From a virus: 64,000 nt of DNA. Of the stretch, positions 3,596 to 52,665 are shown in pieces (the first letter of the stretch is position 1; the number at the start of each line of letters is the position of its first letter). The notes beneath the pieces were generated by a model. The model saw only the letters and a list, made by a program, of their open reading frames with translations. It searched no databases and was not told the DNA's origin. The DNA is taken from IMG/VR virus record IMGVR_UViG_3300032282_001282, positions 22,284 through 86,283 of that record, one strand, 5' to 3'. The translations under genes were made by a program, and so were the position numbers.

Positions 3596-4719
3596 ATATC
3601 ACCCACGTAATAACGTGGGCTGTATTTAGGAATAGTGCCCCGGCCGTTGAGAAACTCCGGGGCTATATTTTTGGCTAGATAATCTGCACCTTGTGCCCAA
3701 ACATCACGTGCTCGACTAAACTGTTTTGTATTATAGAACCAAGTATCAAACTCATTGTCCCAATCGCTCTGCGGCTTGTCGACCTGGAACCACGTATTGT
3801 CCCATGTTGTTTGATACACAACTCCACGTAAGATCTTTTCCTTGGCAGTTTTAAATATACTGTTAGTACTAGACCAAATACGCTGATAGGTAGGATTGAC
3901 TTGTAAGAATCGTAAGAAGGTATGACATTGTTTAGCAAGTATATCGCAAGCTTCAGGCGACCAGTAAAAGAATTCTACTGTGCTGTTATCGTATTCACCA
4001 AAGTTTGGATTGATGTTAATGTTATTAGCTGGCTTGTCTATAAACTGTAGATAGAGTTTGCCGTCAACAATAGTACACGGCGGCTTATCAATGCCTAGTA
4101 TAATACCAATGTTTTGTCGGCTGTCAATACGTGAACGTACTTCTTTAACGTGGTAATAATTGTAACGTTGATTACCGCCAGGATTAATAACATCACGACT
4201 GTCTAACACCCAAGACTCGTCACGTGCTTTTAAGTAATAGGTTAAGATGTCTTTGCTAGAATCGTATACTGTAACCTTAGTATTAGGCATATTATCTGCA
4301 ATCCATTGCATCTTATCCTTGACTGTTAGTTCATACTCGGCGTTTTGATTCCACGTTTCTGTAATTGCGGGATCTAGTACTAGGAAGTCAGTTTTACTTG
4401 CTTCAAAGATCCAGTTAGTAATAATTTCATCAATGTGCAGACCTTGACGATAGAATGACATTAGGATATTATGACTGTCTGCACCACCTGAGTAACTTAG
4501 GATAATGTAATCATATTGTTCACGTAGTTCACGTGCCCTACGATCATATAGTGCATCTAATGACAGTTCTGGTTCATGACTAAAATCGTACGCATCAAAT
4601 ACATCATTGTTAAACACCCATTCAACAGGCAGTTTATTTTGTGTAGCGTGTAGCAAACAGCGGGCTTTGCTGGCAAATGCTTGATTGCCAGCAATATAAT
4701 ATCCTAAGGATTTATTCAT
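3592..4719 (-). CDS. PP-loop (adenine nucleotide alpha-hydrolase) family protein
   Basis: ILSYSGGADS PP-loop motif; paralog of 41990..43105. Confidence 0.7.
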   Translation of the reverse strand: MNKSLGYYIAGNQAFASKARCLLHATQNKLPVEWVFNNDVFDAYDFSHEPELSLDALYDRRARELREQYDYIILSYSGGADSHNILMSFYRQGLHIDEIITNWIFEASKTDFLVLDPAITETWNQNAEYELTVKDKMQWIADNMPNTKVTVYDSSKDILTYYLKARDESWVLDSRDVINPGGNQRYNYYHVKEVRSRIDSRQNIGIILGIDKPPCTIVDGKLYLQFIDKPANNININPNFGEYDNSTVEFFYWSPEACDILAKQCHTFLRFLQVNPTYQRIWSSTNSIFKTAKEKILRGVVYQTTWDNTWFQVDKPQSDWDNEFDTWFYNTKQFSRARDVWAQGADYLAKNIAPEFLNGRGTIPKYSPRYYVGDI

Positions 4720-7349: not shown

Positions 7350-7946
7350 TTATTTATCTACAGGACCGGCAATAATACTATAAACTTCTTCCCAGTTTTT
7401 AACTGTACGCACACCATCGTGATAGTGATTCATATTATGCCCGTGTTCCATTAACAGAGCATTTAATCCCAAATTTGCACCCAATTCAGCGTTTTGCGGT
7501 TTATCTTCAATCCACCAGCAACCTGTGTCGCGGTATGGGTATAGTGCTTCATCTTTGTCTGCGCCTGTGGCCAAACAAACAACACGTTGGAATACCGTAT
7601 CTCCAAATAGTTTACTTAGATTCATTTCCCTAAGTCGTTGTGCATTTGGGTCTGTGCTTAGGCTAGTAATACAATGGAAAACATACCCATGTTCTTCGTG
7701 TAGCTTTTTAACATAGTGTATGGCATCACGTAACGGAGGCAAGAAACCAATTGCGGCACTTTCGTTAAACATCTTAATTAGACGTTTGCCTTGGTCCTTA
7801 CTAATACCGTACCTTGTGCCAATATCATAGTTAAATTCACCACCGGGTAGTTTTTCAAATCCGTGTGTTTCTAACCAAATATTAAATGCGTACTCCCAAT
7901 TGAGTAACACACCATCTGCATCTACTAATATAACTGATTCTTTCAT
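7350..7946 (-). CDS. HAD-superfamily hydrolase, 5'(3')-deoxyribonucleotidase-like
   Basis: DADGVL motif I; ITS motif II; IEDK motif IV. Confidence 0.75.
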   Translation of the reverse strand: MKESVILVDADGVLLNWEYAFNIWLETHGFEKLPGGEFNYDIGTRYGISKDQGKRLIKMFNESAAIGFLPPLRDAIHYVKKLHEEHGYVFHCITSLSTDPNAQRLREMNLSKLFGDTVFQRVVCLATGADKDEALYPYRDTGCWWIEDKPQNAELGANLGLNALLMEHGHNMNHYHDGVRTVKNWEEVYSIIAGPVDK

Positions 7947-19579: not shown

Positions 19580-22447
19580 TTACTCTAAACCTAAATGACG
19601 TTTAATGTCTTTCAATTCGCGTCTTAATTCTTTGATACCTTCAATTAGTAATGGAGCAAACTTTTCGTAACGTACAGTCAAGTACTGTTCATCAATTGGG
19701 GCAGGTGCTACAATCTCTGGCATCTGACGTAGTGTATCTTGAGCCGACACACCAACTTCGCGTTTAACTTCATAACCTAATGCTTGTGCTGTTTCGTTGG
19801 CTTCATAGTAGAAACCAGTTAACTGATCAATCTTGTCTAGGGCATTATCAATAACACCTAAACGTGTTTTTAATCTGTCGTCTGAGTAGTAAGCAGTAAT
19901 GTTGTTAGTAGCACGTATCTCACCAGTTGTTCCACTGGCCGCTGTACCAACACCTAAACTAGCATGTTGTACACTTGCTGTAGTAGAGATATTTTGTATA
20001 GCAACAGAAGTCAATCCAGTAACTCGACCAAAGGTATCAGTGCTAACAACAGGCACAGCAGTTGTACTACCAGCAGTTGTGACTCCGGGGCCTATAGTAG
20101 TTAATGTAATGTTGCTACCGCTGAGTGTTAGGTTACCTGTGCCAGTTGTAGTACTAATTACACGATTACCATTGTCAAATAATCTTGTAGCACGTAGACC
20201 AATGTTACTGTTCCAGTCGCTATTAGAAGAATTTAATGTTATAGAACCAAATGGTGTTATAAAACCTGCGCCATTGGCAGCATTAAGAGAAACTGCATTG
20301 GCCGCCGCTACATAATATAAATCATTTGTAGTTACAGCAGTTGCATCAACGGTAGTAGTTACACCATTGACCCACAGGCTACCGCCAATATAAACATTGT
20401 TGGTAAAGTATGAACCTGGTGTTGTTACTGTTAAGTTACCAGCAACAACATTATTACCAGTTAAAATACTTGTTCCAGTTAAGGTTGTTGTACCGCTGAC
20501 ACCTAGACCAGTTAGTGTACCGAGGCTAGTAATGAAAGGTTGTGCATTGCTTAGAGTGCCAATAGTACCAGTTAATACTGTTCCGGTATTACCGATAGTC
20601 GGAGCTGTAACACTACTACCGACTAAGAATGGAGCCTGTACGTTTTGTAAAGCAATTAAACTGGTCGTACCAATTTGGTTAGTAATTGTTAAACTACCAA
20701 ATGTTGGTGTTCCAGTATTTCTTAAATCCTGGCCCATGGTAAGGTTGAAAGTACCATTACCAACAGTAGTAACAATACCGTTAGTAGATGTAATTGCCAA
20801 GTTACCACCAACGAATACGTTACCTGTACCGTTAGAACCAACTAAGGTAATTGGACTAACTTGTAGTAACTGAGCTTGTGTAGCACGACCCTTAGAGTCA
20901 AATGTAACTTGTGGTATGTAGGTAGTAGTACCATAGCTTCCGGCAATAATACCAGTAGGAGTAAGATTGAAACCTGTGTTCCAACCACTGACTAAATTAG
21001 ATGTAATCTCAGAAGTGTTAGCGTATGTGACTGTAATGTATGGAACACCGTTGGCAAATCTATGACCGTCGGAATATAAATTAGTAATTACAGCACTAGT
21101 AGCATTAAGGTTACCATTTAATGTTGGTGCACCAATGTTACCGGCTACACTCAATGATGACAATGTACCAAGACTTGTAATCAGTGGTTGTGCTGGTAAT
21201 GCTACTAAACCTTGTAGCGTTCCGTTGAATTGTGTTGCGGCAATGTTGGCAACAGCAACGTTACCTGACGCTGTAAATGTTTGGAATGATACAGTACCAC
21301 CAGTGGCAGTTAAACTATTAACACCGACACTGGTAGCTTGAATACTGTTTGCTGTCAGTGTAGGTAGTACACCGAGGCTGGTAATGTTTGGTTGATCTGG
21401 AGTTTGAATTTGACCCCATAGTGGTCCAACTAAAATACCTGCAGAAATATTTCCAAGTACACTTAGGCCGCCGTCGATACGAACAGCACCAGACCCTAGT
21501 CCAGTACTTTGTGTAACAGATAAGAAACGTGTATCACCAGTGATTAGGCCGCCTTGATAGAAAGTACCAAAGCCAACCATGTCAGTAGTAACAACTACAC
21601 CTGATCCAGAGCCAACAGTAATAAAACCATCAACGTGTACGTTACCGTTGATACTGCCTGATACGTTTAAGTTTTGAATATTAGCACGTTGGCTATTAAT
21701 ATTACCAAAGGCAGTTCCGTAGATAATTGAGTTGCCGGACATGATCAACGCATTGGCTGTTCCGACGTTACTTAAGAATAAACTACCAACGTGTATGTTA
21801 CCATAGACACCACCAGACACAACACTATTAGCTGATATACTTACATCGTAATCGACTACTTTATAAATGAAGTCATTGGTTTGATATTGCAAACCAAAAT
21901 AAGCATAGGCATTTGAACTGTTTTTATTGTACTTGCCCAATACACCAATATCTTTAATATCGCCCGGGGACAAGTTAGCGTGTAGTAATAAAATACCAGC
22001 ATCACTAGAAGCCGCAACCTGTGTGGATGAAATAACTTTACCAGCGTAAATGTTACCAAAGAAGTGTGTTGGGCTACCTAAGTTTTGTACTGAGTTACCC
22101 GATGGAACAATATCAGTATGCGGTACAATATAGTTGTAAAAGTCAGCTTGTCCTGTTGCTACTAGGTTAGCAGTAACATTAACCGTTGGAGCATTTAGAG
22201 TATTGACAAATAAGTTTGATGTAAAAGCACCATTGTTACCAATAGTATTACCAACAACTAGGTTACTTAGTGTACCGTTGTTGGCCTTTATAGAAGGAAA
22301 CTCAACAAGATCGCTACTTAAATATGTGTTAAGTTCTTGAAAGTTTTCGTCAGTGTAAATAAACGCTGTTCTAATTTCATCACCGGTACCATCATTGGGC
22401 GATACGCCAACGTTAATACTTGTAATAGAAGAGTTCCATTTTGCCAT
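19580..22447 (-). CDS. tail fibre protein with C-terminal intramolecular chaperone (peptidase S74-like)
   Basis: N-terminal INVG..PNDGTGD..R.AF; QP.ITSLG.L repeats; C-terminal YSDDRLK...GVSAQ...LLIEGIKEL. Confidence 0.85.
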   Translation of the reverse strand: MAKWNSSITSINVGVSPNDGTGDEIRTAFIYTDENFQELNTYLSSDLVEFPSIKANNGTLSNLVVGNTIGNNGAFTSNLFVNTLNAPTVNVTANLVATGQADFYNYIVPHTDIVPSGNSVQNLGSPTHFFGNIYAGKVISSTQVAASSDAGILLLHANLSPGDIKDIGVLGKYNKNSSNAYAYFGLQYQTNDFIYKVVDYDVSISANSVVSGGVYGNIHVGSLFLSNVGTANALIMSGNSIIYGTAFGNINSQRANIQNLNVSGSINGNVHVDGFITVGSGSGVVVTTDMVGFGTFYQGGLITGDTRFLSVTQSTGLGSGAVRIDGGLSVLGNISAGILVGPLWGQIQTPDQPNITSLGVLPTLTANSIQATSVGVNSLTATGGTVSFQTFTASGNVAVANIAATQFNGTLQGLVALPAQPLITSLGTLSSLSVAGNIGAPTLNGNLNATSAVITNLYSDGHRFANGVPYITVTYANTSEITSNLVSGWNTGFNLTPTGIIAGSYGTTTYIPQVTFDSKGRATQAQLLQVSPITLVGSNGTGNVFVGGNLAITSTNGIVTTVGNGTFNLTMGQDLRNTGTPTFGSLTITNQIGTTSLIALQNVQAPFLVGSSVTAPTIGNTGTVLTGTIGTLSNAQPFITSLGTLTGLGVSGTTTLTGTSILTGNNVVAGNLTVTTPGSYFTNNVYIGGSLWVNGVTTTVDATAVTTNDLYYVAAANAVSLNAANGAGFITPFGSITLNSSNSDWNSNIGLRATRLFDNGNRVISTTTGTGNLTLSGSNITLTTIGPGVTTAGSTTAVPVVSTDTFGRVTGLTSVAIQNISTTASVQHASLGVGTAASGTTGEIRATNNITAYYSDDRLKTRLGVIDNALDKIDQLTGFYYEANETAQALGYEVKREVGVSAQDTLRQMPEIVAPAPIDEQYLTVRYEKFAPLLIEGIKELRRELKDIKRHLGLE

Positions 22448-40958: not shown

Positions 40959-41927
40959 TTATTGTACGTTTTTCTTGGTTTTTTCTAATATTTTAAATGT
41001 CTTATTCTGTATTGTACGCAAATCCTCAAACGAGCCACCGGCGTTTATAACGCCCGATGTTTTGAGTCTTTCTGCGTATACAGGATTTTTCAACCCTTCC
41101 TCAACCACGAGATGTATTCTAGCCACAGTTGCTAAATCAGTACCAGCCGGCGCAAATAGTCCATACCAAATGTTCATGTCTAATTCGGGGTGCTTCTTGG
41201 ATAACGCTGGTAATTTAACAGAAGGATTTAATTCGTTGACCGTATGGCTTCCTTCGGGAGTCAGTGCGGCAATAAATTTAATTTTTCCAGCCTGCCATTG
41301 TGGCTTTAGTGTACCCAGTGAATCAATTGAAAAATCCACATTGCCGGCCATCAAATCAATCAGTGCTGGGCCGCCACCTTTGTAGTTGATAATCTGTGGT
41401 GCTGGTAATTTTTCCAATTTGGCCCAGTATGTAAACAAGTTGGCATTGTGATTGGACCAGTGTGCTATGTTGAATTTGTTGGGATTTTTGCGTACATAGT
41501 CCTTGAGTTCTTCATAGTTGTTAACAGGACTGTTTGCAGGAACAGCAAGAATAAATGTGGCAATACCCATTGGGATAATTGGAGAGAAACTGGCCGGTGT
41601 ATATTCTATATTTTCTTGTGCAGTCTTGAAAACAATATTACTGTCCAAGGTACCTTGACTGACCATGAATACTGTGTGTCCGTCTGGATTGGCCTTGGCC
41701 ACATAGTTGGCGGCAATCACAGTATCAGCACCGGGCTTGTTTACAACTGTAGCTCGCCAGCCGTGATTGTTAATAATTTCTTCAACAATACGAGCAAGTC
41801 GGTCTGTGTTTCCGCCTGGTGCAAACCCTACCACAATTTCAATTGGTTTTTTTGTTGGATCAAAATCAGCTAGAGCTGAAAAAGATAACATTGATAGTAC
41901 GGCTGTGATAAAAAGTCGTTTAAACAT
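40959..41927 (-). CDS. Bug/TctC substrate-binding protein
   Basis: Signal peptide; KPIEIVVGFAPGG.TD..AR; NKPGA; PDGHT; YKGGGPAL.DL.AG; WYGLFAPAGT. Confidence 0.9.
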   Translation of the reverse strand: MFKRLFITAVLSMLSFSALADFDPTKKPIEIVVGFAPGGNTDRLARIVEEIINNHGWRATVVNKPGADTVIAANYVAKANPDGHTVFMVSQGTLDSNIVFKTAQENIEYTPASFSPIIPMGIATFILAVPANSPVNNYEELKDYVRKNPNKFNIAHWSNHNANLFTYWAKLEKLPAPQIINYKGGGPALIDLMAGNVDFSIDSLGTLKPQWQAGKIKFIAALTPEGSHTVNELNPSVKLPALSKKHPELDMNIWYGLFAPAGTDLATVARIHLVVEEGLKNPVYAERLKTSGVINAGGSFEDLRTIQNKTFKILEKTKKNVQ

Positions 41928-41989
41928 GATTTGAATGGTCCTTATTTTTAAAAATTTCAATGATTGCGTTGTATAGTTTTTCTAGCACG

Positions 41990-43105
41990 TTATTCTCCTA
42001 GACTGTATTTCTTAGAGTATATGTCCTTGATGTTTAGTAGTGCGTGTGTACGGCCTAATGCGTTTTCGTTAAGCCAATTGAAGAATGGTTTGTCTCCGCG
42101 TAGGTTATAAAACCCTTTAACATAATTTATTGCTGTCGGGTCACCGAGTTTTAATTTTGCGGCCAACATAGGTTCACCAGTTAGGTTAGCAAAATCTTCA
42201 AAGTTGGCATCAGGATCAAATTGAGTACGGTATATACGTCCGTTGGCTGTTTTTTGATTAAAGCTGGCACCTTTGGTCAATTCAGGATGCCGACCTACTA
42301 GTCGAGACCAGGCTGTATAACTAAACGGGCTGGCATCTCTGGCAACCCAAGTTTGACTAAAATTGTCATAAACTCCTGATTTGTGTAATCGCTTCAAGGC
42401 ATTTTTAGCCATATGACTTTGTTTTAAGTTAACTAATGGATCAAGAAAAAAACATTCTACATTAGGATGTCCCATTGTTGTACGTATATTTCTGTCAGTT
42501 TGGCATGTAACCCATTGTCCATTCTCATGGAAAATTGTCGGCTTTTCTAATCCCAATGTAATACCCCAACGGTAACCGTTATGATTGCGTTCACAATGTT
42601 CTATGGTGGCATCGCTCATTGCCGACTGTCCGTATTTTAATAAATCGCCGCTGGTTTCAAAGATCCAGTTTTCGTCACGGACTACCAACTTGCGAATATT
42701 TGAATCGTATTCGTTCCACGGAGTGATTACTGTAGACTTATCGTAGCAGTTGTCTATCATCCATTGTACATGCCACTCGGGGTACGGGTCTCCAGCAATG
42801 TCTTGGCTATACTTGATAATAATTTCATCAATGTGAATGTTATTGGCTTTGAAGATGTTATACATAGTGTGGCTGTCTGTGCCACCGGACCACATAAAGA
42901 TCAGCCGCTCGTACTTGTTTCGTAAATTGCGGGCATGGATTCCCATGAGTTCATCAAAACTAGCTGTGGGTTCTTGAGTCCAATCTAGTCGGTCATTTTC
43001 TGCGTCTAAGCAGTAAAGCTCAACAGGTCGGTTTGAGGTAAAAGATTCGTATAACGCAACATACACGTTGTAAAAAATCTTACCATTGCATAGGTAATGG
43101 GTCAT
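41990..43105 (-). CDS. PP-loop family protein, paralog of 3592..4719
   Basis: LR.KY..L..MWSGGTDSH...HIDEII; G.EKP; ECFF; KQ.H. Confidence 0.7.
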   Translation of the reverse strand: MTHYLCNGKIFYNVYVALYESFTSNRPVELYCLDAENDRLDWTQEPTASFDELMGIHARNLRNKYERLIFMWSGGTDSHTMYNIFKANNIHIDEIIIKYSQDIAGDPYPEWHVQWMIDNCYDKSTVITPWNEYDSNIRKLVVRDENWIFETSGDLLKYGQSAMSDATIEHCERNHNGYRWGITLGLEKPTIFHENGQWVTCQTDRNIRTTMGHPNVECFFLDPLVNLKQSHMAKNALKRLHKSGVYDNFSQTWVARDASPFSYTAWSRLVGRHPELTKGASFNQKTANGRIYRTQFDPDANFEDFANLTGEPMLAAKLKLGDPTAINYVKGFYNLRGDKPFFNWLNENALGRTHALLNIKDIYSKKYSLGE

Positions 43106-43129: not shown

Positions 43130-43362
43130 CATAATGATAGGTTTATTCTGTTACGAGGAAAACCTATCAAAACCCTAAGTGGCTGTTAGGCCGCTAATGC
43201 GAACTGTTCGTCGTTTGCGTTTACGTTTTTTGCTTCTGCGACCGAGCTACGTCTTTCTATGCTATGGGCATAGCGACTACAGTTACCTCAATCCTAACGG
43301 GTTTCACATTCCCGTGTTGTCTGCTTGTCTACTTATCACCCTGTCGAAACCATAGCAGGCCC
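43130..43362 (-). ncRNA. ssrA: tmRNA coding piece of a circularly permuted ssrA (5' acceptor strand plus tag reading frame)
   Basis: Starts GGGCCTG...GGTTTCGAC; tag ORF 43218..43186 encodes ANDEQFALAA-stop; ends in a gataggttt...aaacctatc hairpin (43136..43168). The 3' boundary is approximate. Confidence 0.9.
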
Positions 43363-43363
43363 A

Positions 43364-43732
43364 TCATAAAGAAACTTGTTTGAGATACTGCTCACCTTCG
43401 CCGGTTACATACCAATACTCATCATCGTTGACTATGTATCCAGCATCAGCCAAACTGTCCATAGCATTGTCAAATGCTTGGGTGCGTGACTCATCTTCTA
43501 CATAGTCTAATCCTGACATGATGGCAGTATAGATTCCTTTTAGTATTAGAATTTTACCTAATCCCTTGCCTTGAAAGGTTGGCTCTAATTCTACTAAACT
43601 TCTTCCACTAACTGCATCATATTGAAATGTTCCTGCATATTGCCCATCTACACTTATTTCAACGCCAATAGTATTACTACCTTTTGTTGTTTTGAAACTT
43701 AGTTTCGGATTAGCAATTTCAGTGATACGCAT
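43364..43732 (-). CDS. GNAT-like protein encoded in the tmRNA intervening segment
   Basis: ELEPTFQGKGLGK resembles acetyl-CoA-binding motif A; SD TAAGGAAG directly after the tmRNA CCA; N-terminus MRITEI. Confidence 0.65.
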   Translation of the reverse strand: MRITEIANPKLSFKTTKGSNTIGVEISVDGQYAGTFQYDAVSGRSLVELEPTFQGKGLGKILILKGIYTAIMSGLDYVEDESRTQAFDNAMDSLADAGYIVNDDEYWYVTGEGEQYLKQVSL

Positions 43733-43744
43733 CAAACTTCCTTA

Positions 43745-43809
43745 TGGTGGACCTGGCGGGAGTCGAACCCGCGTCCAGAATGCCTTTCGGCTCACTTCAT
43801 ACAACAATA
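43745..43809 (-). ncRNA. ssrA: tmRNA acceptor piece (T-arm plus CCA) of permuted ssrA
   Basis: CTGGACGCGGGTTCGACTCCCGCCAGGTCCACCA; CAGGTCC pairs with GGGCCTG at 43362, giving G3-U70 and A73; TATAAT at 43816..43821 upstream. The 5' boundary is approximate. Confidence 0.9.
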
Positions 43810-43824
43810 ACTTACATTATATAC

Positions 43825-45330
43825 TTATTTGACTAGCGTGTCAAACGGGGTTAATTTGGATTTTTTGTAAGTTTCTATGGCCGCATACACTTCTTTGATT
43901 TTGTTACCAAATAATGTTTTATCAAAAGTTCCATTTATAACATCTTTGATATCGATTCCTAATCCAACTATTTCCGACACTTCCCACATAGCAGTTACAC
44001 CATCATTCCAGTTGTGTATAACTTTGCCAAACTTCTTTCTGTACTGATCTGTTTCTTTGTTTAACTGTTTTGCGATGGCCAATGCTGTATCTACATCCAT
44101 AAATTTGTTTTTCCAGTTTACAATGTCGATGTCTTTTTTAAATGTGCCTTTGTCTACAGTTTCTGCATCTTTTGTAGTGTAGTCCCATTTTTCATAGTTC
44201 TTCTCAAACTCACTTAATCTAGTCATTGCATTTTTACGCAACACCAATCCAAACCATTCCCATTTATCAAATACTTCAAAGTTCTGGTCGATAAACCATT
44301 GCTGGCTATCAAGTATGCTTTTTAATGATTCGCCGGGCAGTCCTACAATCATTCCTGTGTATGTATAGATGTCGCGATTCTTTTTTAGTTGTCTAACAGC
44401 GTCAAGTTGACGTTCAGTATCCATGCCCTTGCCAATGGCTTTTTTAGCCTCAGGATGGAATGATTCTATCCCAAAGGTACCGGCAATAAGTCCTGTGTCG
44501 GCCAACATTGATATTGTTTCAGGATATCTGGCCATTAAGTCTGCACGTAAGAATGCCGAGTAAGTTAGTTGAACTCCGCTTTGTGCAATAGCTTCGGCAA
44601 CGTATTCTAGTTTAACTATGTTGTCGTTAAATGTATCGTCTTGGAATGTGTAGTTAGTGATACCCCACATTTCGTAATTGCGTTTGAATTCATCGGCTAA
44701 ATTTCCTTTGTGTCGTATGTAGTCATTTTTCTTTTTACCAAGCAAAGGAAATTGGCAAAAGGTACATCTAAATATACAGCCACGACTAATTTCAACAGGC
44801 AAGAAGTTAAATTTAATTTGATCTTCGGGCAACCATTTGATTGTTAAATCAGTGTCATCATTCTTGTAAAATTCTTCAGCATTAACTGCCAGGGTTTCTC
44901 TATATGGTACCCATTGTAGGTTGTCTAATCGTTTACCCGTAATGTATTTTAAGTAATGTAATACTGCTTCTTCGGCGTAGCCCCAGATAATTCTATCTAC
45001 TAGAGCTGTATCTAATCCAGCCAGTGCAGATTCGTTACCGCCAATGAGTGTTTGTACTCCGGGATAGGTTTCTTTGACATGTTTGAATAAGGTATTAATT
45101 TTTTCAAAGTCGTACAAGAATGTAATGCTAATGCCAACAAACAAAGTATCTTTTGTGATATACTTTGCACATACTTGTTTTAATTCGTCTATAGAAAAAT
45201 GACTAAAGTAATCAACTACTTCAATGTTGAACCCATGTGGTTCCAAGAATGTCCTAATTCTAGTTGCACCGGCAGGCCTAGTTAAGGTCTTGGTTTTATC
45301 CATGCCAGTGAAGATTATTCCGTGTGTCAT
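43825..45330 (-). CDS. B12-binding-domain radical SAM enzyme (class B-like)
   Basis: N-terminal VGISITF/IGG/GYAE domain; EISRGCIFRCTFC; DDTFND; GIES; IVGLPGE. Confidence 0.85.
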   Translation of the reverse strand: MTHGIIFTGMDKTKTLTRPAGATRIRTFLEPHGFNIEVVDYFSHFSIDELKQVCAKYITKDTLFVGISITFLYDFEKINTLFKHVKETYPGVQTLIGGNESALAGLDTALVDRIIWGYAEEAVLHYLKYITGKRLDNLQWVPYRETLAVNAEEFYKNDDTDLTIKWLPEDQIKFNFLPVEISRGCIFRCTFCQFPLLGKKKNDYIRHKGNLADEFKRNYEMWGITNYTFQDDTFNDNIVKLEYVAEAIAQSGVQLTYSAFLRADLMARYPETISMLADTGLIAGTFGIESFHPEAKKAIGKGMDTERQLDAVRQLKKNRDIYTYTGMIVGLPGESLKSILDSQQWFIDQNFEVFDKWEWFGLVLRKNAMTRLSEFEKNYEKWDYTTKDAETVDKGTFKKDIDIVNWKNKFMDVDTALAIAKQLNKETDQYRKKFGKVIHNWNDGVTAMWEVSEIVGLGIDIKDVINGTFDKTLFGNKIKEVYAAIETYKKSKLTPFDTLVK

Positions 45331-46103
45331 TTGTTCTTATTAATGTAACGCTGTTTTAGTGCTTCAAAAAACTCACGATCATCATCAGTTAATTCAACTG
45401 CATCAATTTGTTCACGTTGATATCTAACAAAATTTTGTAGTGCTTCAAAGTCGCCTTCATACTTAAAGTTGTTGGTAATCTTTTTAGTATCGTAAACGTC
45501 CATGATAATATGATAACGATCTTCATCTGAGTCATTGCGAATTTGGTGCCATAGGTTAGTCCAAATAATGTATGGACGACCATCGGCTTCCATGTACAGA
45601 CGATCCCCATCACAGATGTGTACGCATTGGTCGTTAGTCCACAATGGAATATGTAGTCTAGCCATATACTCAGTTGTGTCTGCGTCTTTGTGTACTAGGC
45701 TTTTACAATGTGCTTGTAAGCAGGTAATCCTGGCACGTCTAGGATAAAAACCCAACTCCATTAAATGATCAATTATTTTTTTAATTTCGCCTACATAGGC
45801 CTGTGTGGGCTTGTCGTGTTCTAAACTGTGGGAAATATTAAAATGTTTAAAGGACTTGTATATTAGTTCTGTTGTAGGTAAAAATGATTCAAGTGACGTA
45901 CCGGCTTCTGTTTGTATTGCTTCCCAACCATCTTGCCAGTCTGCACTACGGCTTAACAAACTCCACCCGCCAAATCCGTGATACTGTGGTGTTTCAAATT
46001 CTTCGCCTTGGATTACTTGGTTGCCCAATGTAAATACACTTTCGCGAACTTCTTTGCGAAGTTTATCAATATCAAATTGAACGTCTAATTTTTCGTACCA
46101 CAT
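45327..46103 (-). CDS. Asp/Asn beta-hydroxylase-like 2OG-Fe(II) oxygenase
   Basis: RARIT.L; HKD; RLHIPL.TN; H...N.S.EDRYHII.D. Confidence 0.8.
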   Translation of the reverse strand: MWYEKLDVQFDIDKLRKEVRESVFTLGNQVIQGEEFETPQYHGFGGWSLLSRSADWQDGWEAIQTEAGTSLESFLPTTELIYKSFKHFNISHSLEHDKPTQAYVGEIKKIIDHLMELGFYPRRARITCLQAHCKSLVHKDADTTEYMARLHIPLWTNDQCVHICDGDRLYMEADGRPYIIWTNLWHQIRNDSDEDRYHIIMDVYDTKKITNNFKYEGDFEALQNFVRYQREQIDAVELTDDDREFFEALKQRYINKNK

Positions 46104-46111
46104 ATTATTCC

Positions 46112-46687
46112 TTAAATGTTATTTGTTTCTTTGAGCATTTGGTATACATCATTATATGTATACTTTTTTGTTCTGAGAGCTATAGCTTTTCTAACAGCAA
46201 ATTCTTCTACCGGGATCACGTTGTGTATTTGCGATACATCTAGTAACCAAGCCTCGCCTTCTTCGGCAATAAAACTATCTATTTCTTCTACATCATCTAA
46301 ATCGTATACGGCTTTTACATAAGCAACTTCTTGGTCTTCTTCAAGACGACTTTTAGGACGGGTAATTACATTTTCTAATTGATGATAAGTTGAATTGTCT
46401 TTGGCACGATAAAATACCGTGCGACACTTTGTAGTCTTAATGTAAAAATTAATTGTAGTTACTAAATCATTATCAACGTGCGGTAACAGTACAGAATTAA
46501 TAGTCATCAGCGTTAGATAAAAATCATCTTTATACTGTTTAGGTACCACAGAATAAATTGCGTCTATGTCCGGGCTCCAAATTTTATTATGATATACACC
46601 CTTACCGTCTAGGCCAGCAAAAGACTCTAGTCCACTGATGTTAGTGTACAAAGGTGTTTCAAATCGATTTGTTAAGCGAGCAAACAT
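46112..46687 (-). CDS. 2OG-Fe(II) oxygenase-like protein
   Basis: LPHVD; TINFY; LDVSQIHNV; RKAI; paralog of 47330..47860. Confidence 0.7.
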   Translation of the reverse strand: MFARLTNRFETPLYTNISGLESFAGLDGKGVYHNKIWSPDIDAIYSVVPKQYKDDFYLTLMTINSVLLPHVDNDLVTTINFYIKTTKCRTVFYRAKDNSTYHQLENVITRPKSRLEEDQEVAYVKAVYDLDDVEEIDSFIAEEGEAWLLDVSQIHNVIPVEEFAVRKAIALRTKKYTYNDVYQMLKETNNI

Positions 46688-47340
46688 AGCGTCTTATAAT
46701 TAAAATAGTCAGACCCAGATTCAATTATTTGTCTTAGTCTCGGAATGTCTATTTGTTCAATCTTATTAGTATAACCTATTTCGACAGAATATGCAATCAT
46801 ATCTTCGGATAGTTTTTCCAATAGCTGTGTTTGGTTATAGAACTGTGAGTATCCACGCCCTACACAAGCAAGTACATTAACTGCATCCGATTTTAATTCA
46901 AAATTGTTAACGTCTACAATCTCTACAATGTTCATTGGCTTTGCAATACCCAACGCTTCATAACATAATTCTCCCGAAGACTTAGTGTCAATTACTGGAT
47001 ATCGTTTTGTTAATTTTTTACAAACGCTGTCAAAATAATAAGGACTGCCTGGTGCTAGATACGCATACTTAGAATCTCGGGGTAGTGATTTAATAACATC
47101 AATGACCTTCTTGGCAACACTAAATCCATCGATCCTTTTGTTATTTTCTACCCAGGCATTTAATGTAATTATCTTGTGTCCACGTTCTTTAATATACCGA
47201 TAACCGTAATAGTCGGGATAAGATGCCGATGCTACAACACAAGTAATCTTTTGATCAAAGAATGTATAAAACTCTTTGGTAGCAGATTCTTGAGTAATCG
47301 GCACACCCACGACAGTAATGTCGCGAGACTTAAACCACAT
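46672..47340 (-). CDS. tetrapyrrole-methylase-fold (class III) SAM methyltransferase-like protein
   Basis: ITVVG; AYLAPGSPYYFDS (G.P motif); SS.E.CY..LGI, resembling PG.S..D....LGID. Confidence 0.5.
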   Translation of the reverse strand: MWFKSRDITVVGVPITQESATKEFYTFFDQKITCVVASASYPDYYGYRYIKERGHKIITLNAWVENNKRIDGFSVAKKVIDVIKSLPRDSKYAYLAPGSPYYFDSVCKKLTKRYPVIDTKSSGELCYEALGIAKPMNIVEIVDVNNFELKSDAVNVLACVGRGYSQFYNQTQLLEKLSEDMIAYSVEIGYTNKIEQIDIPRLRQIIESGSDYFNYKTLCLLA

Positions 47341-47860
47341 TGCCGGTCTCTTTAAGCATTTCAACAACATTGTCATAAGGATGTATAAATGTACCTAAGG
47401 TTACTGCCTTACGCAGACCGATGGTACCTTGTACGCTGTGTATTTTCTTAACGTTCAAGCACCATATTTCAAAGTCCTGTGCTACAAAACTATCTACTTC
47501 TTCAAGCTCATCTTCAAAATAAATGTGACCATCAATTTGATTTTCTATTTGCAAGGTCCTTGGATTATCTACTGTAGGTCGATAAAATACAGTTTTAGCT
47601 CCGCTGGTTTCAATATAAAAATTGATAGTAGTAATAATTTCTGTATCTGTATGTGGAGGTATTGGGCGATTGATAGTCATAACAGTTAAATGAAAATCAG
47701 ACCAATAACGTTTAGGCAATACGCTGTAGAGTTTTTCGGCGTCGGGCGACCATATCTTTTTATAGTCAATGCCTTGGTTGTCAACGCCTGTGAATGTCTT
47801 TAGCCCCTGTGTTACTGTGTACAGTGGTTTTTCAAAGGTGCTGTTAAGACGTACAAACAT
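47330..47860 (-). CDS. 2OG-Fe(II) oxygenase-like protein
   Basis: IPPHTD; TINFY; LNVKKIHSV; RKAV. Confidence 0.7.
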   Translation of the reverse strand: MFVRLNSTFEKPLYTVTQGLKTFTGVDNQGIDYKKIWSPDAEKLYSVLPKRYWSDFHLTVMTINRPIPPHTDTEIITTINFYIETSGAKTVFYRPTVDNPRTLQIENQIDGHIYFEDELEEVDSFVAQDFEIWCLNVKKIHSVQGTIGLRKAVTLGTFIHPYDNVVEMLKETGNVV

Positions 47861-48546
47861 TATTTCCACTCTTTAATTTTGCTCATGCGTCCAGCCCAGG
47901 ACTTTAGAATTACAGTATTTTCATAGTTAGGATCAACTACCTTACGTAAATCTGTGCTTAGGCTAATGCGTAGGTCCGAGGATTTGTTTTGGTCTACGCC
48001 GTGTAGTACATAGCTAGGGAAAAATATTAGTCTACCTTCTACTGGTTTAAATCTACGCTCACGCACATAGGGACTGCCACTAACAGTATTGCGATCCCAA
48101 TTGATTGCTCCTGCTGTGTCATAGCATACTAAATCGCCACAGCCTTCTTTTGCTTGGATATAGTATGTAGCCGCAATGGCAGATTCTGTGTGTCCGTGTA
48201 CTTCCAATGATTCACCGGGCTCACGCACATTAACCCAGCCCATAAAATGCTCGCACCCTTTGAGGTTAAGCAACCTAATCTCGGGTACTTCTCTAGTGAT
48301 TGTTTTAGTAACAATATCAACGATTTCTTGTTTAAGTATGTCTAAGTTAGGACGACTATAATCCCAAATACTATCACCGGGCTTACGGTCAAGGCCCAAT
48401 ACAATGTCTTTGCCTATACTGTATATTTCGTCAAGCAAGGCAGTATTGAACTCTTCATCAAATCGTGTTTGTACTTCCCATATTGGGCTTTTCCAAAATA
48501 AGTTTTGTGCGTTTTGATACCAGTGGTATCTTTCTTTATCGTCCAT
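47860..48546 (-). CDS. putative 2OG-Fe(II) oxygenase (TIGR02466-like)
   Basis: WVNV; H.H; YY; P.EG.LIFFPSY.LH.V..N.S...RISLS. Confidence 0.8.
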   Translation of the reverse strand: MDDKERYHWYQNAQNLFWKSPIWEVQTRFDEEFNTALLDEIYSIGKDIVLGLDRKPGDSIWDYSRPNLDILKQEIVDIVTKTITREVPEIRLLNLKGCEHFMGWVNVREPGESLEVHGHTESAIAATYYIQAKEGCGDLVCYDTAGAINWDRNTVSGSPYVRERRFKPVEGRLIFFPSYVLHGVDQNKSSDLRISLSTDLRKVVDPNYENTVILKSWAGRMSKIKEWK

Positions 48547-48547
48547 A

Positions 48548-49150
48548 CTATCTGTCCACTATTAAATTTAATTGTTTAAATTTGTCTACTACTGTTTCCC
48601 ATTTAGGCATATCAGGCAAGCGTGGGCCTAACCATGCTCGTACACTAATTGCCCAACGACCTTCACTACCACATTCAATGGCGTGTGGTTTGTCTGTACG
48701 ACACAATACCATTCCCGAGTTTATTTGTTTTCTATCTATTTCAACTAGCTGTCTAGTATCCCACTCGCGATAGCCGTAGTCGTTAAGGTCGGGATGATAT
48801 TCATCAACATCTTTGCCGGGATCATCATACCATGTCATGTAGGATGTTGTATTATTAAATGTCCAGTTCATTGCCCACGTTGTAGTACCAATGGAATCTA
48901 TATCCCAATGGGCTCTGTTGGATTTTAAATACGGTGCTTTGTAAAACAACATGATCAACCCTTTGAGATAAATTCCTTTATCTTCAAATTGGTCAATCCA
49001 CTCTTGTTTGAAAATTTGGTCGGCTGAATAACGCCAACTCTTTTGAACTAACGGTTCTGGGGGAAATTTAAAATCGTCAAGTAATGCGTGTTCTGAGTTA
49101 GCATTAATATCGTACCAGGAGTAATTTAATTCCCTTGTTGACTTTTCCAT
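48548..49150 (-). CDS. 2OG-Fe(II) oxygenase-like protein
   Basis: AHWD; AMNW; RTDKPHAI; RWAISVR. Confidence 0.65.
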   Translation of the reverse strand: MEKSTRELNYSWYDINANSEHALLDDFKFPPEPLVQKSWRYSADQIFKQEWIDQFEDKGIYLKGLIMLFYKAPYLKSNRAHWDIDSIGTTTWAMNWTFNNTTSYMTWYDDPGKDVDEYHPDLNDYGYREWDTRQLVEIDRKQINSGMVLCRTDKPHAIECGSEGRWAISVRAWLGPRLPDMPKWETVVDKFKQLNLIVDR

Positions 49151-49461
49151 TCATTGTATTGTTGTAATAGAGCATTTGACTCTGTATCTTTTTCAACCCA
49201 AGGTAAACCATCATCTTGTCCCTCGGATGCAGATTTAAGCAATGCAGTCTGCCCAAGCAACATACGTGCTTCAGGCGGAATAATTGCTTCAACAATATCA
49301 TGATATTCAGTCATCATTTGAAAGTATCTGGCTTTGTCTGTTTCGCTCAAGGCCATAATACGTTGATACATTTGATTGTTGAAAAAGTCGTGCAGGTGAT
49401 CTTTGTTGTAAACTACAACTTCACCGTTTTCGTTTGTAATTGTAATATTCTCTTCGCTCAT
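49126..49461 (-). CDS. hypothetical protein
   Basis: Coupled to the Cys-rich gene. Confidence 0.55.
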   Translation of the reverse strand: MSEENITITNENGEVVVYNKDHLHDFFNNQMYQRIMALSETDKARYFQMMTEYHDIVEAIIPPEARMLLGQTALLKSASEGQDDGLPWVEKDTESNALLQQYNEWKSQQGN

Positions 49462-50333
49462 GCTGTTACACCTTTAAATTTTAATGTTTCAAATAGTTGA
49501 CCAACAGCAACGATACCTCTGAATGCAACAAATACAGCTACCAATGAAATGCCTTTGATAAACCCGGCTGGCTTAGTACTAGGACCAACTAAACGTTGCC
49601 ATAGTCCAACTGCTTTACAAATAGGTATGCCAGCGGCAGTTAACATTTTACCTGTAATAGATCCTTGGTCAGTTTTGCCCATACTATAGGCCATTTCTTC
49701 TGCCCACGGTGTAGCAATATCCTTGGCCCAAGCAATAGCCCAATCTTTAAGAATTTGTTGACTACGAGATTCTGGCAACCACGGTAAGATATTAGGACCA
49801 CTGCCATCCATCCAGTCAACTACAATTTCAGCCCAAGCACGATATCCGTTGTAGATATCCGGGCGTTCTTTAATTAGTTTAGCACCAAACTCTTGATCAG
49901 CTAAGAAGATTTCAGTTGGTAGTAGTCCAAGACTGTGTAGTTTTGTACAGATAATCTTAGAGCAGTTACAATCGTGTGTAAAGCAATTTACTGTATCGCA
50001 GTTGTAAGTACAAGCACAATTACAGTTTGCCTGTAGCCAGTTTTGAGCATCGCAGTTGGCGCAATTAATCGCTGTACAATTTGCTGTGTTACAGTTACAT
50101 TGGCCGCAGTTACAATTACCGTATGCGCCGTTATTGCCGTTATTGCAATTGCCTTGGTTGTTATTTTTAAAGTATGTTAGGCCGTAGAACGAACCCATGT
50201 TTGGACTTGTAGGTCTGATATTTGACTTAATCAGTCCGTTGAGAAAGTTTAAATCTGCAGAATAGTTTGCGGCCTGTCCAATTTCTTGGTTAACGTCGCT
50301 GACTGCAATTTGTCCAGATGTTTGTAGCGTCAC
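49458..50333 (-). CDS. Asn-Cys-repeat protein with virion-like N-terminus and C-terminal KIICT domain; candidate modification substrate
   Basis: MTLQTSGQIAVSDVNQEIG N-terminus; 15 Cys in residues 63-124; KIICTKL...ADQEFG...YNGY..WA domain; hydrophobic tail. Confidence 0.7.
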   Translation of the reverse strand: MTLQTSGQIAVSDVNQEIGQAANYSADLNFLNGLIKSNIRPTSPNMGSFYGLTYFKNNNQGNCNNGNNGAYGNCNCGQCNCNTANCTAINCANCDAQNWLQANCNCACTYNCDTVNCFTHDCNCSKIICTKLHSLGLLPTEIFLADQEFGAKLIKERPDIYNGYRAWAEIVVDWMDGSGPNILPWLPESRSQQILKDWAIAWAKDIATPWAEEMAYSMGKTDQGSITGKMLTAAGIPICKAVGLWQRLVGPSTKPAGFIKGISLVAVFVAFRGIVAVGQLFETLKFKGVTA

Positions 50334-50353
50334 ACTTGCCCCTTTTCTTATAT

Positions 50354-51808
50354 TTATGCATCAGCAAGCTGTGATTTACCGTAGACTGTAACCCCGTCAA
50401 TTTCGCCTATTGTTTCGTGTACTACTTTAATTGGAATAATGCGTTTTGTTGGTTCTTCTTTGTGTTCAAAAATAGTACCAAATATGTCTTGACGATCTAT
50501 GGGCAATGTATCGCTCTTAATTAATGTAGGGATATAACCCCCAGTAACTTCAGCAATAGCTAAAGCAAACATGGCCACGTTGTCGGAGTAGGCATTGGCA
50601 CAACTGATATCCCAGAACTTTTTGTCCAGGAACATACAAGCACCTTTACATAAATGTAGCACAGGACACTCAGGGCATTCTTTACGCTTAGACCAATGTG
50701 TTACTGATGTAAGTTTAACTTCATCAAATTTATCTAGTGTACCGCCTAGGTGTGGCTCACCATTCTTAGACATTTCTAACGCACTTACGTTTTGGCAAGT
50801 TAATACATTGCCTCGCAAGTCTACAGCAATGGTATTCTCATCATCCATACCGCATTTTTGTCCTACAAATTTAGCATCAACACGGTTCAGTAAGTTCTGT
50901 GCAAAGCCACCAATCTTTTGAATTTGGCCTAGGAAACCAATCTTACCATCTGTAGTCCAGATGTCGGCAAATGCTTGACGTCTAAATTCAAAGTGATCTT
51001 GTTTAGTTATTAAGCTGTTAACAATACCTTCTTCGTCATAGGCATCGACAATACCGCCTTCGCCTAACTGTACATTTTCATCACCAGTTAGATCAACAAA
51101 CCAATCGTAAATTTCTTTGCGTGATCTGTTCTTGCTGTTAAGCATAGCATTGAAACTAAATCCTTGTTTCAATCGGGTCATCATACGATAAAACCCAAGT
51201 ATACGTTCTTTTTGTTCTGGATCATCAAAAGGATCTGGTCCTCGCACACTTTGTCCCGGACCGTCATGACTAATAGCAACAGTGAAGTTATACTGCATTA
51301 ACCAATCAATCATTTCGTCTGTTAGAATTGATCCGTTGGTAATAACACTAAACCTAGGTTTTGTTTTCCAGTGGCTAAATTTTTTATAAATTGTTTCAGC
51401 CAGTGGCTTCATTGTTTTCCAATAAACAAATGGCTCGCCGCCACAGAACTCTACCTTGAGTCCTCGCTGTTCATCGAAGTTTAAATTTTCTAGTTTTTGC
51501 ATGAAAGCATCAATGTCTTTCATGTTAGTTTCTGGTGCCCGCTCAACAAACTTTTGTGAGCAATAGTCACAAGAATAGTTACAGCTCAAACCCATTTGGA
51601 TTTTAAGATGTGTAATGTCTCGAGATTTTAACATCGGTGTGTCGATGTCAAATGATGTATATGGTGTGAATGAGTCGGTTAAATTTTTATCGGCGTTGCC
51701 AAATTCAAATACAGTACCATCGCTTGTGGTTAATGTATTAGACATATTGTCGTAGTAAAAGACAGCTTTATCCGTGGAGCTTTTTTCTCCGTGTATTTCA
51801 AAAATCAT
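50354..51808 (-). CDS. radical SAM/SPASM-domain enzyme
   Basis: CNYSCDYC; GGEP; ITNGS; ISHDGP; CG...VDLRGNVLTC; CPECPVLHLCKGAC...C. Confidence 0.9.
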   Translation of the reverse strand: MIFEIHGEKSSTDKAVFYYDNMSNTLTTSDGTVFEFGNADKNLTDSFTPYTSFDIDTPMLKSRDITHLKIQMGLSCNYSCDYCSQKFVERAPETNMKDIDAFMQKLENLNFDEQRGLKVEFCGGEPFVYWKTMKPLAETIYKKFSHWKTKPRFSVITNGSILTDEMIDWLMQYNFTVAISHDGPGQSVRGPDPFDDPEQKERILGFYRMMTRLKQGFSFNAMLNSKNRSRKEIYDWFVDLTGDENVQLGEGGIVDAYDEEGIVNSLITKQDHFEFRRQAFADIWTTDGKIGFLGQIQKIGGFAQNLLNRVDAKFVGQKCGMDDENTIAVDLRGNVLTCQNVSALEMSKNGEPHLGGTLDKFDEVKLTSVTHWSKRKECPECPVLHLCKGACMFLDKKFWDISCANAYSDNVAMFALAIAEVTGGYIPTLIKSDTLPIDRQDIFGTIFEHKEEPTKRIIPIKVVHETIGEIDGVTVYGKSQLADA

Positions 51809-51826: not shown

Positions 51827-51916
51827 TTACTTGTCAAACCAGTCTTTGGCTTCTATCATCAGATAGACTACCACGGAACCTATAACGAGAATACTTAACC
51901 ATCCGAAGAAAGACAT
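51827..51916 (-). CDS. 29-aa single-TM peptide
   Basis: MSFFGWLSILVIGSVVVYLMIEAKDWFDK; start overlaps the upstream stop (TAATG). Confidence 0.45.
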   Translation of the reverse strand: MSFFGWLSILVIGSVVVYLMIEAKDWFDK

Positions 51917-52119: not shown

Positions 52120-52640
52120 TAGTATGCTCTGCGAACCCCGGTGGTAATTATACCGCATCAGAAATTTGGTCAGGTTACCCCAATTAGTCTTTCATCACAC
52201 ACGGCTTCCACCCACTTCCCGACGGGTTCCGTTCTCGCATTGCCAGCGGCCTTTCGGTTTAAAGACTACCACCCACGGGGCACGACCACCGTTTCTCCTT
52301 CATGCGGGTCACACTAGCCCAGCGTTACCCGGGCGGGTCCTTTACAACGTATTCGTCGTGGGTGGTTTTGGGAAGTGACACCACGATTCACTTGCGGGTT
52401 TTGTAGAGAGTTTTTCAAGTGAGCGTTACCGCCTCTACAGGAACGCACTTGTCCCTTCTCACTTAATATTTACAGCAATATTGGAAAATGTTTGAGTGCC
52501 AATTTATGCGTCGGGTGCTTCCCGGCAACAGCGTATGGCTAGTTATATCAGGACCTGTTCCACGCCAGTTAGGCCCGTATAGTCAGTACGTCTACTAACG
52601 ATACCTATGTTTCCATCTCAAACACTTACCAATATTGCCG
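52120..52640 (-). ncRNA. candidate large structured non-coding RNA(s)
   Basis: GC-rich intergenic stretch with no credible ORF; many hairpins; 22-bp closing stem at 52475..52638. Confidence 0.55.
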
Positions 52641-52665
52641 GGGGTTTTACCCCCCAGCAACATTA

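Follow-up and report, generated by a model that had tools for sequence, protein, structure and literature searches.

The DNA analysed here is a stretch of 64,000 nucleotides (nt) from a virus, positions 22,284 to 86,283 of the IMG/VR record IMGVR_UViG_3300032282_001282, and is referred to below as the window. The record is linear, comprises 86,283 bases and is estimated to be 24% complete, which points to a much larger genome. A cassette of ten open reading frames (ORFs) lies on the minus strand of the window; it begins with the gene of a radical S-adenosylmethionine (SAM) enzyme carrying a SPASM domain and the gene of a Cys-rich protein, and continues with a series of predicted tailoring enzymes. 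The features at its head are as follows.

43825-51808, minus strand: the cassette g1-g10, ten co-oriented ORFs numbered by transcription order
50354..51808, minus strand: g1, radical SAM enzyme with complete SPASM domain, 484 amino acids (aa) (Pfam, PHROG, motif)
49458-50333, minus strand: g2, Cys-rich protein, 291 aa, GTG start
50172..50333, minus strand: g2 residues 1-54, conserved N-terminal domain, kept across 42 homologues (alignment A1)
49956..50171, minus strand: g2 residues 55-126, Asn-Cys-rich tract, the proposed substrate (composition)
49461..49955, minus strand: g2 residues 127-291, "KIICTKL" all-helical C-terminal domain with a hydrophobic last helix (AlphaFold2)
49126..49461, minus strand: g3, small protein, 111 aa, which follows g2 in most sampled cassettes and is sometimes duplicated

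The g1 stop and the g2 start are separated by 20 nt, the junctions g2/g3, g3/g4, g5/g6, g6/g7, g7/g8 and g9/g10 overlap, and gaps of 1 nt and 8 nt occur at g4/g5 and g8/g9. The co-oriented, tightly coupled enzyme run described in the first-pass annotation was thus recovered with its coordinates as ten minus-strand ORFs, most of them overlapping and the others 1-20 nt apart.

The g1 product matched Pfam Radical_SAM (PF04055; 1.2e-10, 42.2 bits against a cutoff of 29.5), Fer4_12 and phrog_1802 (1e-61). Its CX3CX2C cluster motif reads CNYSCDYC at residues 76-83 (C76/C80/C83), and the seven-Cys SPASM motif, taken as CX9-15GX4C ... CX2CX5CX3C ... C, is complete (C319-X13-G-X4-C338; C378-X2-C381-X5-C387-X3-C391; C403). 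In alignment A5, which contains 36 homologues of 34-70% identity, neither the CX3CX2C motif nor any of the seven SPASM cysteines varies. The best NCBIfam matches are all SPASM maturases of peptides or proteins, namely PapB, geopeptide, QhpD, HxsB, CcpM, anaerobic sulfatase-maturating enzyme (anSME), DynA and SCIFF. All named families are matched below their cutoffs: the best, the ranthipeptide PapB/freyrasin model NF047865 (3.9e-22), at 78.9 bits versus 340, and QhpD, CcpM, SCIFF and TIGR04463 at 41-63 bits versus 425-525. By these comparisons g1 is a separate SPASM family, corresponding to phrog_1802. The best PDB relatives by sequence were 8vpo, 5wgg and the anSME structure 4k36. Residues 1-60 matched no family, and the Pfam and NCBIfam scans of g1 detected no recognition domain of the kind used for ribosomally made peptides that are modified after translation (RiPPs).

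The g2 product contains 17 Cys, of which 15 fall within residues 55-126 together with 21 Asn, compared with a Cys frequency of 0.9% in the other long ORFs of the window. The tract holds 12 Asn-Cys dipeptides against 4.4 +/- 1.6 after shuffling, and none of 20,000 shuffles reached 12. Across the 42 homologues of alignment A1, the GNC triplet (61-63), C112, C122 and C124 are invariant. In the AlphaFold2 model, the predicted local distance difference test (pLDDT) was about 54-79 for the N-terminal domain, about 33 for most of the Asn-Cys tract and about 88 for the helical domain; the parts relevant to fibre identity have low confidence. A Foldseek comparison of the g2 fold with the PDB returned nothing at E <= 0.001.

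The helical domain connects g2 with a wider set of phage proteins. Among its BFVD matches is the C-terminal region of a phage DUF4815 protein, and the same KIICTKL domain ends many phage proteins of 240-2100 aa, among them DUF4815/phrog_358-type proteins, Gly-rich proteins and proteins with tail-fibre or structural PHROG matches (loci L029-L066, e.g., L031:9998-10933 and L029:5069-10555). Seven proteins with this domain included one matching tail-fibre PHROGs, one matching head/virion-structural PHROGs and two matching phrog_358. In nearly all examined KIICTKL proteins that lack Asn-Cys repeats, a run of 3-10 Gly precedes the domain, and these proteins have no radical SAM gene nearby. The presence of the enzyme therefore goes with the Asn-Cys tract rather than with the helical domain. 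The N-terminal domain of g2 is likewise shared with Gly-rich proteins of about 312 aa that have the same C-terminal domain and no nearby radical SAM gene (L031, L036, L041), and the 133-aa Asn-Cys proteins adjoining a radical SAM gene in L125-L130 start similarly to g2 (by eye). As g2 itself matches no PHROG or Pfam family, it is from relatives that we infer its probable place in the virion.

A likeness of g2 residues 119-291 to NEL E3 ligases was dropped: the top VIA-align rows, SspH1, SlrP and IpaH1880 (Z 6.0, 6.0 and 4.3), lie below the tool's noise level for helical domains, and no claim is made. As a side observation, these three best rows are consistent in family (NEL-type), and the helical domain has one invariant Cys, C129. 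The neighbouring g3 product is poorly conserved and mostly helical, with a near-invariant Trp near the C-terminus (alignment A3), and matched no family in Pfam, PHROG or NCBIfam. These features lend no support to the idea that g3 is a domain resembling a RiPP recognition element (RRE), and this candidate was rejected.

An unbiased IMG/VR scan for DNA that can encode (Asn-Cys)4 returned 120 stretches. Of these, 65 contain an ORF that is at least 90 aa long and stops no more than 12 residues from the (NC)4 run (hereafter NC-tailed), while the other 55 are short or low-complexity ORFs and giant-virus contigs. A g1 homologue (23-59% identity) accompanies 53 of the 65 NC-tailed ORFs and 4 of the 55 other matches (Fisher p = 2e-17). 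All 53 homologues are encoded on the same strand as the NC-tailed ORF, and 50 lie downstream of it, at 20-5400 nt; in most of the 12 exceptions, the NC run is near the downstream end of the stretch. Eight of nine NC-tailed proteins sampled matched PHROG tail-fibre families, some being collagen-like. The tail-fibre gp028 of the cultured Achromobacter phage JWF reads ...QNCNCDCNCNCSC followed by FPAGTMVLMADG..., the start of an annotated Hint domain, and a g1 homologue of 47% identity is encoded two genes downstream. The side tail fibre of Ralstonia phage RSP15 ends in ...NTNCQCGN, near a g1 homologue of 43% identity.

Further loci encode g2-like and other Asn-Cys proteins. In L125-L130 (g1 57% identical), a 656-aa fibre-like protein with a chaperone-like C-terminus is followed by the 133-aa g2-like protein and then by the enzyme; the 133-aa protein ends in NCNCNCNCNCNCNC, i.e., (NC)7, and has no helical domain. 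L028 (g1 45%) encodes three Asn-Cys proteins, two of which, of about 100 aa, end in CYNCNCNCNCNC, and L258 has a g2-like tract followed by sequence resembling the S74 intramolecular chaperone. What follows the tract thus differs by locus, being a stop codon, a Hint domain, S74-like sequence or, in the window, the helical domain. Read from sequence, this distribution shows that the SPASM enzyme is genetically coupled to Asn-Cys tracts borne by proteins of fibre type, and it is the distant loci that provide independent support for the pairing.

As a side observation, in 34 of 51 simple-tail loci the SPASM enzyme has a companion protein family of about 215-410 aa (median 290), in most cases encoded between enzyme and fibre gene; the 51 loci are RSP15, JWF, L125 and 48 from the (NC)4 scan. 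Examples from the L147-L260 set are L178:8491-9300, L001:7314-8126 and L125:11481-12473. The members scanned gave no significant Pfam match, and searches for the family in the window, the g2-type loci and JWF found none.

The same evidence bears on two other explanations of the g1-g2 pair. In the first, g2 would be the precursor of a true RiPP: its N-terminal 54 residues would serve as leader, and a modified Cys-rich peptide would be excised and set free to act as a toxin, signal or antibiotic. A leader-like N-terminus does precede a Cys-rich core, the best family rows of g1 are RiPP maturases, and short versions of 67-134 aa ending right after the tract exist. However, Pfam, PHROG, NCBIfam and synteny revealed no protease, exporter or immunity gene within the cassette, g1 has neither a detectable recognition domain nor a family match over its first 60 residues, and in distant phages the tract ends proteins of 280-620 aa that match tail-fibre families. 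We regard this explanation as very improbable, and the release of a modified peptide, which the first-pass annotation had offered as an option, is not supported, no protease or exporter having been detected in the cassette.

In the second, the tract would be mainly a metal or iron-sulfur module of a fibre tip, with g1 performing another reaction, e.g., the conversion of Cys to formylglycine as anSMEs do. The tip of the T4 long tail fibre provides a comparison with its iron-binding His-x-His repeats, and the period-2 Cys pattern of the tract would place all thiols on one face of a strand. The anSME family is also among the few that align over nearly the whole of g1 (TIGR03942 over residues 72-391, PDB 4k36 over residues 74-394), and metal binding is likewise raised in the paper on the archaeal Cys-rich protein CrpA (PMC13692751). 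Yet the TIGR03942 score of 59 bits is far from its cutoff of 349, which leaves g1 outside the anSME family, and the g2 sequence contains no CxPxR or SxPxR sulfatase motif. Metal binding alone would, moreover, need no enzyme co-occurring so strictly. This makes a metal site an improbable main role of the tract, although a less remote one than peptide release.

The conservation of the cassette was also assessed in closer relatives. IMG/VR scans with g1 or g2 gave loci L003-L140, among them about 90 contigs (g1 identity 63-74%) in which the order g1-g2-g3-[variable g5/g6/g8-type oxygenases]-g9 is kept, as judged where the flank was long enough. The smallest cassette is g1-g2-g3-g9 (L082). The genes flanking the cassette differ between locus groups, so it behaves as a unit. 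When a g9 profile was used as the anchor, 67 new loci were found, and 50 of the 51 with at least 3 kb upstream hold g1 and g2; the sole exception is the most distant hit. Enzymes and Cys-rich gene therefore do co-occur, a point on which the first-pass annotation had staked its proposal.

The remaining genes of the cassette encode the putative tailoring enzymes, among them 2-oxoglutarate (2OG)-dependent Fe(II) oxygenases.

48548..49150, minus strand: g4, oxygenase-fold-like protein, 200 aa (Atlas structural lead)
47860..48546, minus strand: g5, 2OG-Fe(II) oxygenase, 228 aa (Pfam, above cutoff)
47330..47869, minus strand: g6, 2OG-Fe(II) oxygenase fold, 179 aa (motif and predicted structure)
46672..47376, minus strand: g7, tetrapyrrole-methylase-like protein, 234 aa (Atlas; the start is possibly residue 13, nt 47340)
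46112..46687, minus strand: g8, 2OG-Fe(II) oxygenase fold, 191 aa (paralogue of g6, 49% identical, alignment A2)
45327..46103, minus strand: g9, Asp/Asn beta-hydroxylase (AspH) family, 258 aa (Pfam, above cutoff)
43825..45330, minus strand: g10, radical SAM enzyme with a candidate B12-binding domain, 501 aa, closing the cassette (Pfam)

With a double-stranded beta-helix, an HxD/E...H iron triad and a 2OG-binding Arg as the defining features, g5 is a 2OG oxygenase by Pfam, and g6 and g8 are by motif and fold. g5 matched 2OG-FeII_Oxy_5 (3e-17), phrog_81 (8e-25) and TIGR02466 (2.6e-14), and its residues H117, H119, H182 and R193 are invariant (alignment A4). g6 and g8 have no Pfam hit, yet share an invariant HxD...H...R pattern (H73, D75, H144, R153; alignment A2). 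Scanning all 35 g6/g8 members with Pfam yielded no consistent family, their profile had no hit in the PDB, and hhalign comparisons of g6/g8 with g5, and of g4 with both, were weak (probability <= 15%). Since sequence and profile comparisons failed, the g6/g8 fold was established via structure prediction. The AlphaFold2 model of g6 (pLDDT 92.4) had the ribosomal protein hydroxylases NO66, MINA53 and YcfD as top Foldseek matches (E about 2e-4), and nearly all of the 50 VIA-align matches listed were 2OG oxygenases, with Z of 8-9.8 to proline hydroxylases, AlkB homologues, YcfD and AspH.

The assignment of g9 is based on Pfam Asp_Arg_Hydrox (PF05118; 7e-10, 39.4 bits against a cutoff of 22.6) and on H138, D140 and H186, which are invariant in alignment A6. 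For g10, Radical_SAM was matched at 3e-19 (70 bits) and the B12-binding domain at 1.8e-6 (28.2 bits, below the cutoff of 32.1); the best NCBIfam model was the PhpK family (6e-30, 104 bits against a cutoff of 600). g10 follows g9 in a subset of relatives, seen as 31 ORFs by blastp and in 26 of the 67 g9-anchored loci.

The Atlas neighbours of g4 include 2OG-FeII_Oxy_3/5 and JmjC clusters at a template modelling (TM) score of 0.56, a lead only, and HWD and PHA motifs were found by eye. tblastn found no g4 match in related loci, and blastp found one distinct ORF. g7, with no Pfam hit and no PDB sequence hit, had an Atlas feature score of 0.92 to PF00590 clusters and TM scores of 0.73-0.74 to TP_methylase models, some with a MazG fusion, which gives a lead towards a class III methyltransferase-like protein; among relatives it occurs in L026 and L027 only. 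Of the enzymes named in the first-pass annotation, g1, g5, g6, g8 and g9 are thus upheld, as is the radical SAM core of g10, whose candidate B12 domain scores below cutoff, and g4 and g7 stand as structural leads. The analogy drawn there between g7 and borosin methyltransferases found nothing borosin-specific among these tetrapyrrole-methylase clusters.

Considering these genes together, we think it somewhat probable that the locus is a phage cassette for protein maturation, which acts on the Asn-Cys tract of the small fibre-type protein g2. In the proposed mechanism, the CX3CX2C cluster of g1 would bind SAM and an auxiliary SPASM cluster would bind a Cys thiol; g1 would take a hydrogen from a neighbouring residue and form a thioether, as NxxcB, PapB, CteB, QhpD and CrpC do. 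The likeliest acceptor would be the Asn beta-carbon, because Asn is the constant partner of Cys, and repetition of the reaction would turn the tract into a ladder of cross-links. The AspH-family g9 and the 2OG oxygenases g4, g5, g6 and g8 would hydroxylate side chains of the same tract, and methyl groups would be added by g10, the B12-type radical SAM enzyme, and by the methylase-like g7, both of which occur in some relatives only; g3, a putative partner, follows g2 in most cassettes. The cross-linking, hydroxylation and methylation of the tract are proposed by analogy, and the outcome would be a fibre or adhesin tip hardened or tuned by chemical means.

Hint and S74 domains are known to cleave themselves off elsewhere. 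If they do so in these proteins, the Asn-Cys tract would form the end of the mature protein, and the KIICTKL helical domain may, by analogy, be a removable or assembly-phase helper; a membrane anchor is another candidate role for it. A broader and more tentative hypothesis, to which we give slightly less than even weight, is that many phages, from Achromobacter siphoviruses to giant aquatic myovirus-like ones, "vulcanise" the end of a fibre or adhesin. A SPASM enzyme would make a stack of thioether rings from a terminal Asn-Cys ladder, here with up to seven further hydroxylating and methylating enzymes, so that a virion part would bear chemistry like that of natural products, and the tract would be exposed once the C-terminal helper (Hint, S74 or helical domain) is removed.

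Several observations weigh against the maturation of g2 as a fibre-type protein. All named-maturase scores of g1 lie far below the curated cutoffs, which leaves room for more than one type of reaction. g2 is about 21 kb from the one ORF of the window that matches tail-fibre families (19580-22447), belongs to no PHROG or Pfam family itself, and has a hydrophobic C-terminal helix that could indicate a membrane protein instead of a virion part. Close relatives share ancestry, so their synteny alone is weak, and the distant loci are mostly without g9 and g3. Among the sequencing runs listed with this DNA, none was of RNA; all were water metagenomes, with shares of at most 0.42 apart from the probable source sample.

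The variability of the tailoring set speaks for a third explanation, in which g1 modifies g2 but the oxygenases, AspH, g10 and g7 would be auxiliary metabolic genes that travel with the pair and act on another target, e.g., a nucleotide, a small molecule, or a lipid or sugar of the host envelope. Loci differ in how many and which oxygenases they carry, g4 is nearly unique to the window, as is g7 with its two relatives, and g10 occurs in a subset, its best NCBIfam row being a small-molecule P-methyltransferase family; g9 and g3 are missing from most distant simple-tail loci. Genes of the 2OG-FeII_Oxy_5 and AspH types are, moreover, common and widespread in aquatic phages, AspH being reported as core to pelagimyophages (PMC7029224), and phrog_81 is classed among auxiliary metabolic genes, so another substrate is conceivable for some of the oxygenases. 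In contrast, the oxygenases of the sampled cassettes lie between g3 and g9 in one overlapping same-strand run, and the g9 subfamily was found apart from g1/g2 in just 1 of 51 testable loci. Genes of the 2OG-FeII_Oxy_5 type also adjoin the enzyme in 13 of the 51 distant simple-tail loci, at only about 45% g1 identity, and the best Foldseek matches of g6 are protein hydroxylases. In L156, a g10 homologue of 29% identity lies directly downstream of the SPASM enzyme. A split of functions is therefore judged unlikely, though it is the strongest of the three competitors. The dedicated pathway on the Asn-Cys segment of a tail or adhesin protein, as the first-pass annotation had put it, gains from the synteny, from the reciprocity of g9 and from the NC-tailed fibres, while we infer its chemistry from known enzymes and the virion role of g2 comes from relatives.

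Among described systems, one of the closest is CrpC of Methanococcus voltae (TIGR04463), a SPASM enzyme that installs thioethers on the 28.8-kDa Cys-rich protein CrpA (PMC13692751, 2026). As with g1 and g2, the enzyme is encoded beside a large Cys-rich protein, whose N-terminus is leader-like and whose cysteines are C-terminal. CrpC places its thioether (ranthionine) cross-links on a whole protein and not on a peptide, as would g1. However, CrpA/CrpC is archaeal and not viral, CrpA repeats a 17-residue Cys motif ten times whereas g2 has Asn-Cys pairs, and CrpC has a predicted RRE domain, whereas none was detected in g1. No oxygenase or methylase is named in the Crp cluster as described (CrpA, CrpB, CrpC), and g1 reaches 41 bits against TIGR04463, whose cutoff is 525.

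For the acceptor, the streptococcal radical SAM RiPP pair NxxcB/NxxcA offers the only described native Asn acceptor, a Cys-Asn beta-thioether made by NxxcB, which matches the constant Asn-Cys pairing here (PMC9389541). NxxcA differs in being a short peptide with a single NxxC, spaced i/i+3 and not adjacent, in a bacterial operon regulated by quorum sensing. The likeness to NxxcB lies in its described chemistry, as no NxxcB model was among the NCBIfam matches of g1 listed.

The two-chemistry logic proposed for g1 with g9 and the 2OG oxygenases has a counterpart in quinohemoprotein amine dehydrogenase (QhpD/QhpC/QhpG), where QhpD introduces several Cys thioethers into a small protein that is later modified by the oxygen-dependent hydroxylase QhpG (PMC7876137). 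QhpG is a flavoprotein and not a 2OG or AspH enzyme, the Qhp product is an enzyme cofactor subunit, and g1 matched the QhpD family TIGR03906 at 5e-17 and 61.7 bits, far below its cutoff of 453. The ranthipeptide enzymes PapB and CteB (SCIFF, TIGR03974) also act on Cys-rich substrates with repeated motifs, as here, and CteB (PDB 5wgg) is among the best PDB sequence matches of g1 (6.8e-10). In contrast to g2, their substrates are peptides of about 45 residues with Asp/Glu or Thr acceptors, and the alignment with g1 covers the radical SAM core only (residues 65-185).

The borders of the cassette were also examined. A perfect TTGACA-17-TATAAT promoter (43844 to 43816) lies 3' of the g10 stop, ahead of a permuted two-piece tmRNA at 43186-43806 on the minus strand, which was found by Rfam (101 bits against a gathering score of 47) and spans a 123-aa ORF at 43364-43735. 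ARAGORN called neither tRNA nor tmRNA and missed this one. With promoter and tmRNA directly after g10, the downstream border is clear. Upstream, the ORF-poor stretch at 52120-52660, earlier flagged as a possible structured RNA, had no Rfam match at gathering thresholds. A near-identity DNA search with the cassette in 50,697 phage records returned no match.

One short element was read from the sequence between g1 and g2.

50351..50358, minus strand: CATAAATA box, 17 nt 5' of the GTG of g2 and overlapping the stop codon of g1

The ATAAATA heptamer is not enriched overall, occurring 16 times in the window against 23.6 expected. Minus-strand boxes are located at 7351, 12327, 15073, 15726, 22472, 50351, 57009, 57871, 58816 and 59161, and most lie about 5-40 nt 5' of an ORF start, including that of the tail-fibre gene 19580-22447. 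This position suggests T4-type late promoters. The CATAAATA box is possibly another of them, a hint that would fit late expression of g2.

Two further side observations concern the surroundings. A 29-codon ORF, MSFFGWLSILVIGSVVVYLMIEAKDWFDK (51827-51916, minus strand), with one hydrophobic helix lies between an 80-aa ORF and g1, and its ATG overlaps the preceding stop codon (TAATG). A solute-binding protein of the TctC family (Pfam 6e-34) and, beside it, a 371-aa SGGxDS PP-loop protein (motif by eye) are encoded a short way downstream of cassette and tmRNA. In L028, a 343-aa protein with the same motif, after a 313-aa ORF, directly follows the Asn-Cys genes. The coordinates concerned are 40959-43105 and 3592-4719 in the window, both on the minus strand, and L028:11866-13843; a link of the TctC or PP-loop genes to the cassette is possible.

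In agreement with the first-pass annotation, which knew of no such phage system, a literature search found no paper on Asn-Cys tails or on radical SAM modification of phage fibres. The pelagimyophage paper only mentions "radical SAM cassettes" in the host recognition cluster (PMC7029224), and in a cyanophage paper such an enzyme is called an antibiotic-synthesis gene (PMC12801897). Radical SAM cross-linking has been studied mainly in small secreted peptides and lately in a few whole proteins, and no paper was found for a virus particle. Judged from gene content, what is probably new here is that a known kind of reaction, SPASM maturation of a Cys-rich protein, would take place in a virus, on fibre-type proteins and with an uncommonly large complement of tailoring enzymes. 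At least one cultured phage, Achromobacter phage JWF, carries the minimal form, which makes the system directly testable. If our reading is true, these phages would provide a natural enzyme set for (Asn-Cys)n, consisting of a SPASM cross-linker, 2OG hydroxylases and a B12-type methylase, that would be of interest for stapling peptides and proteins. Many phages would then have covalent modifications on their receptor-binding or tip structures that are invisible to sequence and to AlphaFold-type models, with consequences for predicting host range, for engineering fibres in phage therapy and for interpreting cryo-electron microscopy.

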